Shown here: piece after piece, positions 40,462 through 44,802 of the stretch | Position numbering within the stretch: the first letter of the stretch is position 1 | Layout: each line of letters opens with the position of its first letter | NCBI RefSeq assembly: GCF_011745625.1 | Contig: NW_027191496.1 | Span: forward strand, 1-64,000 | Length of the DNA stretch: 64,000 nt | Direction: 5' to 3' | From: Cladosporium halotolerans | Taxonomy: Eukaryota | The notes under the pieces: model-generated | What the model was told of the DNA's origin: nothing | What the model saw: the letters and a program-made list of their open reading frames with translations, nothing else | The model's database searches: none | Program-made: the position numbers and the translations under genes

Positions 40462-41545
40462 ATGGCAGACAATGCGTTCAGCAAAGCGACCGCAACGGTC
40501 GAGTTCCTGAGACTCGCTTTGCCGCCTGCGCTTGCGAAGCCGCGGGTTGCGATTGTCTGTGGCAGTGGACTGGGAGGTTTGGTTGCGACGTTGAACGACG
40601 ATGTGAGAGAAGAGTGGGCGTACAAGGACGTACCAAATTTCCCTCAAAGTACAGGTGAGTGATCTGTCGGGACAGCAGCTAAACTCACGGATCACAAATG
40701 GTCTTCAAGAAAGGAAACTGAGATAAGACGTGTAGTGGCTGGCCATGCAGGCAAACTTATTTTTGGTACATTGGGCAAGGAGAAAGTCCCTGTGATGCTC
40801 CTGGTCGGCAGAGCGCAGTCAGTAGCCACCGATCTACATAGTATGCCAAAGACCGCGCGCGCTCATGATTTTCTTTCTCAGTTTCTACGAGGGCCATGCC
40901 ATGGAGGCCGTCACGTTCGCAACCCGCGTGTGCAAGGTCATCGGTGTCGAGACCATGCTCCTAACCAACGCTGCCGGAGGCTTGAACCCGTCCTATTCTG
41001 TTGGTGACATCGTTTGCTTGAACGACCACCTCAACCTGGCAGGCCTTGTAGGTTTCCATCCGCTTCGTGGAGCCAACGAGGAAGACTTTGGTGTCAGGTT
41101 CCCTCCGCTTTCCGATGCATACGACCTGCAACTGCGCCAGCAAGCACACGAGGCTTGGAATGACCTACGCAAGGAGTCGCCCAGCAACAGAAAGATGCAT
41201 GAGGGTGTCTATGCTTTCGTAGCTGGGCCGACCTACGAGACCAGATCCGAGTGCCGGCTGCTCCATGGGCTTGGTGCAGACGTTGTGGGAATGAGCACTG
41301 TCCCCGAGATCGTGGTAGCGAGACACAGCGGTATGCGTGTTCTCGCCTTCAGCCTGGTCACCAACAATGCTGTGCTGGAGAAGGTGCCGAGAGGCGACGA
41401 TCCTCAGCTTCAAGGATTGACCAAGGAGCAGCTCGAGGAGAAGCTAAGCCTCGGAAAAGCGAACCATGAGGAGGTGCTCGAAGCGGGACAGCAGGCTGCA
41501 CTCGACATGCAGGGGCTGGTTTTGCGCATCGTGTCACAGCTGTAA
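40462..41545 (+). CDS. PNP1: Purine nucleoside phosphorylase; introns 40655-40735 and 40818-40881; alternative in-frame ATG at 40381
   Basis: IVCGSGLGGL, PQST/VAGHAG, GRA/HFYEG, TNAAGG, GPTYET, VGMSTVPE. Confidence 0.95.
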
Positions 41546-41596
41546 ATAATGTCAAGAGCCATACTTGTTTCCAAGCACGACACGCAGAGGGCATGT

Positions 41597-42522
41597 TCAG
41601 CCGGAGCCCTTCTTGACACCGCCCTTTCTCTTTTCCTTAAGAGCCTTGTAGAAAGCCTTCTTGCCGCTGCCCTTCTTCTCTTGAGCCTCGCCATACTTCT
41701 TCTTGAAGCGACCGTTCTGCTGTTCGCCGGCAAGGACTTCTTCGACAAGCGTGCGTTTGCGATTCTTGTTCTCGATTCTGCCAGAAAGATACTCGGTCGG
41801 CCCCTCAATGATGGTACCAACCTGGCTGTACTCGGGCGCCTGCATCTTGCCACCTTCCTTCTTGTAGTGACGATGCGGGTCAAGCACGTTACGCATCTTC
41901 AGCAGCTGAAGATCCCTCTTGAGCTCTGGTGTGAGGTCCGTGCGAGGGAGGTTGTACCACTGGGTGCCAGCGGTGGCCTTCTTTTTCTGGTGAAACTGTT
42001 AACAATTGTACCATGCGATACGATGTGCGAGTCGAATCAGTGTGGTAGAGGTGTCTCAGAGTAACTATGAAAAATAAAACTCTCATTTTGGCAGAAGGGC
42101 GACCAAAACGGCGCCCCGACTCTGCTCGAGGGAAAAAATTGGGAATATTTTCCTCATAGACAGGGAGAGGGTAAAGGCATGAATGAATGCAAACGTACCT
42201 CGGCAGCAATCTTCTTCGCCGTAACGGGGTCCTCGACCTTGCGAATCAAGCCCTCGCTCTGGCGGGCCTTGTCGTCGATGAGGCGGCTCTTGTCGGCCTG
42301 GGTGATGTGTCCCTTGGTAGTGGCATAAGGTTTCTCCAGGTTGCCAGCATCCATCTTGGGGAAAGTGAACTGCTGAGGTGCCTCCGACTCAAACATCTTG
42401 CCTTCCTCCTTCTCCTTCAGCCGACTGGTCGCCTGTGCAAGAAGCTCCTCCATCTGCTCGTCCGTGAGATCATCATGGGAGGATGCCACTTTTGGCAGAG
42501 CTTCCAGTGCGTCGGAAGCCAT
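41597..42522 (-). CDS. FCF2: rRNA-processing protein Fcf2; intron 41987-42198
   Basis: Spliced AAE/KKKATAGTQWYNLPRTDLTPELKRDLQLLKMRNVLDPHRHYKK..VGTIIEG..RKRTLVEEVL. Confidence 0.9.
42052..42162 (-). ncRNA. Intronic box C/D snoRNA, predicted guide for 25S rRNA Am2256 (snR63/SNORD46-type target)
   Basis: Terminal stem TGTC/GACA, box C variant ATGAGGA (42157-42151), box D CTGA (42059-42056) preceded by TCATAGTTACT, complementary to the LSU rRNA helix-69 sequence AGUAACUAUGA. Confidence 0.85.
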
Positions 42523-42814
42523 GCTTGTCGAAATGCCGAAACCGAGAGCGGCTGGCAGATGCAGAAGAGAAGAAAGAGAGGGCAGGTGTAGCCAGCGCAA
42601 ATAAAAGTTAACTAGCGCGCATGCGGAACGCTTCCGCGGCTGCGCCGAAAGCGACATGGGCTGCGCTAGCAGCAGCGTCATGGCATTGTTTAAAGCATCC
42701 AGCCAACTTCCAACCCTCGCCTACCTCGTCTTGTATATGCCCCCTTGCCTATTTCCTGTACATATTTCGCTCGAGGTTCTCATCTAAGACTGCTCATTCG
42801 ATCCCGCGACCACC

Positions 42815-44802
42815 ATGTCGCCCAAAGTCTCCTTCGCAAAGACCACGTTGCCCTTTCCCATCTTCGCTGCCGACTTCGATCCATTCAATCGCGGGTATCT
42901 GGTGGTAGGAGGCGGCGGCGGCGAAGGCCGTAGTGGTGTCCCTAATCAAATAGTCAGTAATGATTCCAGTACATTCAGAATTCGCGTTTCTAAAGCTCTG
43001 TATAGGCGGTCCTTGATGTCCAAGATCGATCTACCATTTCCACGGTTGCCGAAATCGACCTTTCGAGAGACGAAGACTCTGTTCAATCACTTGCCAGCCT
43101 CGCGACGCAGGATGGTCTGATCACGTTCGCCGGTATCAATTCGTCCCAAACGAACCAGAACGCTGGCAAGAACGACCACTTCCGATCATTCGAGATCAAA
43201 TACCCGCCGCGGAAGAAGCAGAAGACGGACGAGGAGAAGGGGCATGTCAACTCGTTAGGCAGGAACAGCTTGTTCAAGCCCACGCCATCTGCTAAGAGCG
43301 AGACATATCAACGCTTACTGCGTCTTTCGCCAGCTCAGAAGCGCGCGGGTGGAAGTAGGCGGATAGGCGCCATTGCGACGGGACTGGCCAAGAAATCGGA
43401 GCTGGTCGTTTTTAATGCAACGACCTCGACCCCCGGTTCCGAAGATATTATCACGCGAATCGAGCCTGATGGTGGCGCTGAGGTGGCAGACCTCGATGTG
43501 GCTACGGCTGGCACTGACGAGTTCAGCGTGGCTTACTGCACGGATTATAACATCTACGAGCAGACATACCAATATGATTTCAGCAAGAAGCAGGTGCAGA
43601 AGATGCCTAACGGTCCTCGCCGCATCCACCAGATGCCATTTCCCGATGCCACGGAGAACCCAGCCTCCAGGCCCAAGTTCCGCGCCCTTCGATTCCTCGA
43701 TTCGCAGAACGTCGTTGCGCTGCTCAACAAACCTGGTAGGACTGGTTCCGAGCTTCGCATTTACCACCTCTACCCAACAGGGCCTGCGATCATGACACTC
43801 CAGATGAGCCTGCCTTCTCACATCAAGCAGGCAGTCAGCTTGGACGTCTGCGCTCTTGACACAGATAAGAAAGGCAACCGACAAAGCGTGGTTGCCGTGG
43901 CCGGACAAGACATCAGCATCGAAATTTACACCATCAACTACACTCGCAACACGGACACGTTCTCTCGTTTCCGGTCCTACCAAAGCTCCAAGAACGTCCA
44001 CCCGCAGCAGATGACGAAGCTGTGCCTCTCGCCTTTTCATTCGCCCGCCCGCGCACAGGGCCCTGACTCCCAGCCTTCGACCGATGAGAAGAAGCCCAAG
44101 GCACCTATGCATCCTGGTCCTCAGTATATCCGTCTGGCCTCTGTCAGCTACGGTAACACGGTCGTGGTCGACACTCTTCCCCTGAGCCCGCTGGACCCCA
44201 AGGACAAAGACTCGCGCTACGTGCTCTCGCATCCTGACGACGAACGCTTCCAGCGCATCGCCTACACCTACTTCGCCTTCCTCATCCCCCTCCTCATGGC
44301 TTACCTGGTCCACTTCTTTATGTATCCCGAAGTCTCCGTCGCCACGCGCCTCATCAACGTCCTGCCCGAGCCCGTGCGCCACCGCTTCGGCACTCCAGTT
44401 CCCCTCCCTGTCGCGCAAAGCTTCGGCAGCGCAGTACACAGCACGGCTTCGTCCATTGTCGCAAGCGACGTGCCCACCGCAGTTCCCGGCCAACAAAGGC
44501 TTGCAGACCTGTTGTCGGTCCCGGGCGCCGAGCAGAATGCGCTGGTCGTGCGCCACGACCCGGCGAACACCGGCGTTGCCGTCGACGTGCACCCGGACAA
44601 GCAGGCCCTGCTTGCCGAGCACGCCGAAGCGAAGCACTGGCACGAGCTGAGCGACGAGCACAAGGCGGAGTGGAAGCGGAGGCTGAAGGCAGCCGGCTAC
44701 TGGGTCGAGAGCGAGGGCGAGCGCGTACTGAAGGGCGTCATGTTCTCCACATACGCTGGCCTGGTTGGGCAAGCTGCGGGCGAGATCTTGCGTGAGCTGT
44801 AG
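42815..44802 (+). CDS. SEC12: Sar1 guanine-nucleotide exchange factor Sec12 (PREB-like); intron 42953-43005
   Basis: N-terminal K-loop region FPIFAADF..VVGGGGGEGRSGVPNQI, beta-propeller-like body, one TM, lumenal tail. Confidence 0.85.

Follow-up and report, generated by a model that had tools for sequence, protein, structure and literature searches.

A predicted intronic box C/D snoRNA of the CD33/snR63/SNORD46 family in the FCF2 gene of Cladosporium halotolerans

The intron of the ribosome-biogenesis gene FCF2 in a 64,000-nt stretch of Cladosporium halotolerans DNA (contig NW_027191496.1, positions 1 to 64,000; 'the window' below) very probably encodes a box C/D snoRNA, an orthologue of Neurospora crassa Nc CD33, yeast snR63 and human SNORD46 (U46) that would guide methylation of an adenosine in helix 69 of the large subunit (LSU) rRNA. 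Earlier publications cover the family, the target and an intronic location in a filamentous ascomycete, and members are known in yeast, Neurospora and humans, so that the snoRNA predicted here is best regarded as real but ordinary. Its value to annotation is that it accounts for an unusually long intron and supplies a non-coding gene missed by Rfam-based pipelines. snoRNA biology gains little: a helix-69 guide that keeps to one FCF2 intron among relatives, a form of box C peculiar to the lineage, and two conserved elements outside the guide function.

The snoRNA candidate and its host gene

Inspection of the sequence places the candidate, 111 nt including the terminal stem, at 42162 to 42052 on the minus strand, within a gene on the same strand that runs from an ATG at 42522 to a stop codon at 41599–41597. 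The features are as follows.

42199 to 42522, minus strand: FCF2 exon 1, 108 codons from the ATG (open frame; similar N-terminal parts in four uninterrupted orthologous ORFs)
41987 to 42198, minus strand: host intron, 212 nt, GTACGT...CAG (GT..AG; contigs of three runs join 41986 to 42199)
41597 to 41986, minus strand: FCF2 exon 2, 129 codons plus stop (Pfam Fcf2, PF08698)
42052 to 42162, minus strand: predicted box C/D snoRNA (sequence; orthologue covariance model; 77% mean identity with 48 orthologues)
42159 to 42162, minus strand: terminal stem, 5′ half UGUC (TGTC in DNA), pairing with GACA at 42055–42052
42151 to 42157, minus strand: box C, variant AUGAGGA (G3, A4, G6 and A7 invariant in 49 of 49 aligned sequences)
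42139 to 42144, minus strand: UCCCAA element just 3′ of box C, function unexplained (alignment conservation)
42126 to 42129, minus strand: putative D′ box UCGA, from its position and conserved GA (orthologues have UCGA, UUGA or CUGA)
42091 to 42125, minus strand: GC-rich internal hairpin between D′ and C′ (RNAalifold; outer stem GCAGA...UCUGC, inner stem, loop GUUUU)
42080 to 42086, minus strand: putative C′ box AUGAGAG (UGA kept in orthologues, remainder degenerate)
42060 to 42070, minus strand: D-box antisense guide UCAUAGUUACU, 11 nt (DNA TCATAGTTACT), with T at 42064 opposite the target A
42056 to 42059, minus strand: box D CUGA (invariant in 49 of 49)
42052 to 42055, minus strand: terminal stem, 3′ half GACA (sequence)

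The first-pass annotation had listed a closing stem, a box C variant, an internal hairpin, a C′-like motif, a guide and box D, and all of these are present on the minus strand. A single U separates UGUC from box C (42162–42159 and 42157–42151), the spacer that follows box C is A/U-rich and contains UCCCAA (42144–42139), and a U-rich spacer lies between C′ and the guide. In the hairpin, the outer stem pairs GCAGA (42125–42121) with TCTGC (42095–42091), and the inner stem is GGGCGCC/GGTCGCCC. Box C, box D, a terminal stem and a guide of at least 10 nt adjoining box D are the features of a box C/D snoRNA, and it is as such, and as the orthologue of a known family, that 42052 to 42162 is predicted from the DNA.

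The identity of the host gene, given as FCF2 in the annotation, was confirmed by exon 2, which encodes a full-length Fcf2 domain (PF08698, E = 8.8e-40, profile positions 1–95 of 95); with the exons queried separately against Pfam, exon 1 matched no family. Fcf2 belongs to the SSU processome and binds the U3 snoRNP (PMC10068337, available portion). The splicing of the intron was examined in four sequencing runs with near-identical sequence, placed on 40600–43400. In three runs from three studies (X11, X12 and X14) the contigs join 41986 straight to 42199, skipping exactly 212 nt, and the ends of the skipped segment read CT..AC on the plus strand, that is GT..AG on the gene strand. These three runs have zero depth in the intron and in the intergenic DNA beyond 42574, the pattern expected of RNA, although the records only guess at their kind; the fourth (X1) covers both and is DNA-like. 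The exact joining in the three runs means that the 212-nt intron (42198 to 41987), as previously proposed, is spliced out; FCF2 is transcribed and this intron removed.

The intron holds one snoRNA, whose 3′ end lies 65 nt from the 3′ splice site, a distance that is constrained among relatives (see below), as is characteristic of intron-encoded snoRNAs. The reading frame is kept by either of two AG acceptors, at 41996 and 41987 (minus strand), with 9 nt between them; the contigs of the three runs use only the distal one at 41987. A convergent neighbour gene on the plus strand (40990–41561) ends at about 41545, some 50 nt from the FCF2 stop codon (region 41532–41986, minus strand); one RNA-like contig (X12, 1381 nt) spans both genes, so that the two transcripts probably overlap at their 3′ ends.

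Conservation across FCF2 introns

With the protein encoded by FCF2 exon 2 as sole query, a search of metagenome contigs yielded 80 loci at 47–91% identity, and we then sought the motif CATAGTTAC.CTGA upstream of each protein match. Ten loci have 41 nt or less of upstream DNA and are uninformative, leaving 70 that could be judged. The element is present in 65 of these, 64–104 nt upstream of exon 2 (64–80 nt in 64 loci and 104 nt in one). Four others (L008, L015, L029 and L030) lack it and have a continuous frame that leads from an exon-1-like N-terminus into the Fcf2 domain; as the frame is unbroken there is no intron there, and these are either spliced transcripts or transcript-derived contigs, or else lineages that have lost both intron and snoRNA at this place. 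The last (L078, 47% identity) has upstream DNA and no element. The boxes and guide are therefore kept in 65 of the 66 intron-bearing informative loci, a conservation in orthologous introns on which the first-pass annotation had staked its reading, and the guide has remained in this FCF2 intron among relatives with no more than 62–91% identity in the Fcf2 domain. A covariance model built from the orthologues found the element in all 17 further loci marked by the motif and nothing in five loci that lack the motif. In the window the same model has a single match (118.1 bits, the window sequence being itself part of the model), and so detects no second copy there.

Conservation is concentrated on the snoRNA. 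Mean identity between the window and 48 distinct orthologues is 0.53 in the 5′ intron flank, 0.77 in the snoRNA and 0.55 in the 3′ flank, against 0.73 in the first 90 nt of exon 2 and 0.48–0.52 in shuffled controls. With the flanks at the level of the shuffles and the snoRNA at about that of a coding exon, selection acts on the snoRNA block and not on the intron. Judged from these comparisons, the block is under purifying selection, in the pattern that a box C/D guide would require.

Might such a block instead be a cis-acting element of FCF2, for control of splicing or autoregulation, and not a trans-acting RNA? The very stable tie to one host intron (65 of 66 intron-bearing loci) and the narrow spacing to exon 2 (64–80 nt in all but the one locus at 104 nt) would be expected of such an element. 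The parts that are conserved, however, are those that a C/D guide needs, namely the boxes, the terminal stem and, correctly spaced from box D, a guide complementary to rRNA; what was cloned from Neurospora as the orthologue is a small RNA (PMC2780460); and a constrained distance to the 3′ splice site is what the processing of intronic snoRNAs would lead one to expect (PMC2780460, available portion). We consider a cis-acting element scarcely credible. For the snoRNA reading, the kept spacing of 64–80 nt fits the position dependence of intronic snoRNA processing, which is discussed with references by Liu and colleagues (PMC2780460, available portion).

For the analysis of individual positions we aligned the window with 48 distinct sequences (49 in all), after dropping two truncated loci and collapsing duplicates. 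The guide CAUAGUUAC is invariant in 49 of 49, in part by construction, as loci were located and scored with the guide motif. Given the alignment, RNAalifold alone predicts the internal hairpin, with 11 pairs of which six show compensatory changes. In the inner helix of the hairpin 97.1% of cells are paired and five of seven pairs have double changes; in the terminal stem 80.1% of cells are paired, two of four pairs are changed on both sides, and the third pair covaries (CG in 29 sequences, UA in nine, GC in three). A few orthologues (e.g. L014 and L016) have no clear terminal stem. Taken together, the two stems have 92.1% of cells paired and 8 of 16 pairs changed on both sides, compared with 85.5% of cells paired in shuffled alignments (none of 500 shuffles reaches the observed value) and 38–43% when the pairing partners are slid.

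Box C is the part that departs from the canonical form. Position 5 is G in 37 of the 49 sequences and U in the other 12; AUGAGGA is found in 35 and AGGAGGA in two, with canonical UGAUGA in 12. These 12 also carry A, not U, adjoining box D, as does human SNORD46, and the two characters together mark a clade. In the geometry of the kink-turn, position 5 of box C forms a U–U pair with box D; a G at this position would give G–U, and the variant should be tolerated. A decaying or inactive copy, in which AUGAGGA blocks snoRNP assembly and the methylation is guided from elsewhere or lost, would account for the deviation from RUGAUGA at position 5. We regard it as very improbable, given that AUGAGGA is kept in 35 of 49 distinct orthologues in which the other parts are all constrained, that the G–A residues of box C are invariant, and that no second copy occurs within the window. 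Moreover, N. crassa CD26, which was cloned as cDNA, has the same UGAGGA-type box C (PMC2780460).

The helix-69 target and known relatives

The 11-nt guide is complementary to 5′-AGUAACUAUGA-3′ in the helix-69 loop of LSU rRNA. The pairing, already pointed out in the first-pass annotation, agrees both with the published N. crassa 26S duplex and with eukaryote-type LSU contigs; the target sequence was taken from these two sources (the former from the paper, the latter of unassigned taxa) rather than from the rDNA of the organism itself. Counting five bases upstream from box D leads to T at 42064, whose partner in this pairing is the second A of GUAAC, again as had been claimed. A published LSU primer site retrieved 34 loci from genome contigs. 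In 12 of these AGTAACTATGA follows exactly 63 nt downstream and the sequence is LSU of eukaryote type; the others are chance or cut matches. All 12 sit in assemblies labelled as bacterial and are thus likely contamination. When the D guides of the 49 sequences were folded against the two longest contigs with RNAduplex, helix 69 was the best site for 49 of 49 in one (L104, 9.6 kb) and for 34 of 49 in the other (L101). In three contigs (L083, L086 and L096) the LSU sequence follows ordinary rRNA up to GACTCTCTT and then diverges, a few bases on the 3′ side of the helix-69 target, in what looks like an insertion, possibly an intron.

Chance matching is a poor account of the guide. The 15-mer of guide and box D occurs once in the window, where 0.04 occurrences with up to two mismatches would be expected. 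We also ran a crude C/D scan over both strands of the whole window, asking for a box C-like heptamer, CUGA 50–140 nt downstream, a terminal stem of at least four pairs and a D guide of at least 10 nt complementary to four rDNA contigs. It returned two candidates, and only that at 42162 to 42052 matches the same site in four of four rDNA contigs. The other (29915–29797, minus strand) was rejected, as it falls within a 1033-aa ORF on the opposite strand and has a match in a single rDNA contig.

Among published snoRNAs the closest relative is Nc CD33, a 102-nt, intron-located RNA of chromosome III recovered from a cDNA library (Liu et al., 2009; PMC2780460, Table 1; GenBank EU780957). Its D guide is assigned to 26S-Am2218, and its listed homologues are snR63 of Schizosaccharomyces pombe and Saccharomyces cerevisiae and U46 of Arabidopsis and human (PMC2780460). 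The published duplex sets 5′-UCAUAGUUACUCUGA-3′ over 26S 3′-AGUAUCAAUGA-5′ (PMC2780460, Additional file 4), and the 15-mer of guide and box D is letter for letter identical with that of the window. Both RNAs are intronic and have the same predicted target in the helix-69 loop, with 102 nt cloned in Neurospora against 111 nt here. Compared by eye only, the full CD33 sequence (Additional file 1) looks similar over its whole length, notably near box C, in the hairpin and in the guide, and the parts come in the same order: box C, an A/U-rich stretch with UCCCA, a D′-like motif, a GC-rich hairpin, a C′-like motif, guide and box D. Box C itself is canonical UGAUGA in CD33, in contrast to UGAGGA in the window element. 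The accessible text and supplements of PMC2780460 name no host gene for CD33. Our search of the literature on Fcf2, snoRNAs and introns found no report of FCF2 as a snoRNA host, and the accessible main text of 'The fungal snoRNAome' (PMC5824354) makes no mention of snR63, CD33 or FCF2, while its supplements may list the family or the species.

In S. cerevisiae, snR63 guides 2′-O-methylation of the equivalent adenosine, 25S Am2256 in helix 69, and this is the function predicted here. Yeast snR63 differs in its far greater length (about 255 nt) and in coming from a gene of its own instead of an intron. The equivalence with yeast A2256 and snR63 proposed in the first-pass annotation holds up, given the CD33 15-mer and its listing as a homologue of snR63 and U46 (PMC2780460), together with the assignment of Am2256 to snR63 (PMC2794176, available portion). 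The predicted target of the window element is in this way that of CD33 and snR63. According to the available portion of PMC2794176, Am2256 in helix 69 contacts the D-stem of the A-site tRNA and h44, helix 69 forms bridge B2a and touches the A-site tRNA, and loss of its modifications alters translation accuracy in yeast. The target is accordingly of functional importance; the guide itself was already known.

Searches with Rfam models recover this kinship in part. At gathering scores the whole window has no match in Rfam. A narrow search gave sub-threshold matches to snoR442 (18.1 bits against a gathering score of 50), SNORD46 (17.4 against 40) and GlsR7 (16.1 against 75), all resting on guide and box D, UCAUAGUUAC(U/A)CUGA; no match to any yeast snR63 model appeared even at E ≤ 10. 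The Rfam check proposed in the first-pass annotation thus supports the family through the guide and box D shared with these three models, and fails at the level of gathering scores. The alignment to vertebrate SNORD46 (RF00218) covers model positions 40–98 of 104 only, in which the guide with box D and a stretch of the internal region, GCCGUCUUGGUC, align to the consensus. The human host of SNORD46 is a ribosomal protein gene and not the orthologue of FCF2. Plant snoR442 (RF01232) and Giardia GlsR7 (RF02476) share guide and box D and show no likeness outside the guide. Twelve orthologous loci searched at E ≤ 1 gave no Rfam match. A narrow search of orthologue L047 gave only sub-threshold, generic C/D matches, among them one to SNORD50 (18.9 bits, E = 0.1) that has UAUCCC following box C in common and that we set aside as uninformative. 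The snoRNA predicted here reaches the curated score of no Rfam family model, and fungal forms of this kind seem to fall outside those models.

Combining the transcript contigs with what is known of the family, we propose the following course. After transcription of the FCF2 pre-mRNA and splicing of the 212-nt intron, the intron would be debranched and exonucleases would trim it back to the core snoRNP proteins, bound on a C/D kink-turn closed by the terminal stem, so releasing the snoRNA; the lineage-specific change of U5 to G in box C would keep the G–A residues needed for this kink-turn. By analogy with the family, the 11-nt guide would then pair with the helix-69 loop in the pre-60S particle. 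By the spacing rule and from the orthologues, the snoRNP methyltransferase would 2′-O-methylate the adenosine that faces guide base five. This is the second A of GUAAC and would correspond to Am2256 in yeast and Am2218 in N. crassa.

Conserved modules outside the guide

Two parts of the element are conserved in the 49 distinct sequences though they are neither boxes nor D guide. In UCCCAA, which does not adjoin D′, the middle C (42142) is invariant and its neighbours are largely kept (alignment column over loci L001–L075). In the hairpin, the loop C-G-U-n-n-U-G is invariant in the fungal set of 49 sequences, and the segment GCCGUUUUGGUC (42100–42112, minus strand) aligns to the SNORD46 consensus GCCGUCUUGGuC (model positions 40–52) with 12 of 13 letters in common, a likeness that reflects either deep conservation or chance.

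It is possible, if rather doubtful, that a real snoRNA of this family has a second conserved activity, compatible with methylation of helix 69, in which UCCCAA, the loop CGUnnUG or both make accessory base pairs with pre-rRNA, act as the D′ guide of a different target RNA, or bind a protein. Besides the conservation of both parts and the likeness of the loop to SNORD46, the composition of the guide is consistent with such an activity, as the D-guide duplex is A/U-rich, and extra pairing may help such a duplex. Regular-expression searches and RNAduplex, run on seven eukaryote-type rDNA contigs, found no consistent rRNA complement for the spacer from box C to D′ with its UCCCAA, nor for the loop, a negative result that is weak because the taxa of these contigs are unassigned. 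The best rDNA sites of the spacer scatter between contigs and between orthologues, while the D guide finds helix 69. One weak match 15 nt downstream of the target, GUCUUGG/UUAAGGU, was rejected, having four G–U pairs out of seven. A D′ guide was also rejected, as the bases directly upstream of D′ vary freely, and Liu and colleagues (PMC2780460) assign CD33 a D guide only.

Going further, one may tentatively speculate that the family carries two additional selected modules, UCCCAA and the hairpin loop CCGUCUUGG, the latter invariant in these fungi and matching the human SNORD46 consensus. These could represent an old second function: extra base pairing might open helix 69 within the pre-ribosome, for instance, or the modules might contact a particular protein. 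The near-universal residence in the FCF2 intron could mean that selection has tied a guide for LSU modification to a gene of the SSU processome. Alternatively, the hairpin may do no more than hold C′ and D′ close to each other.
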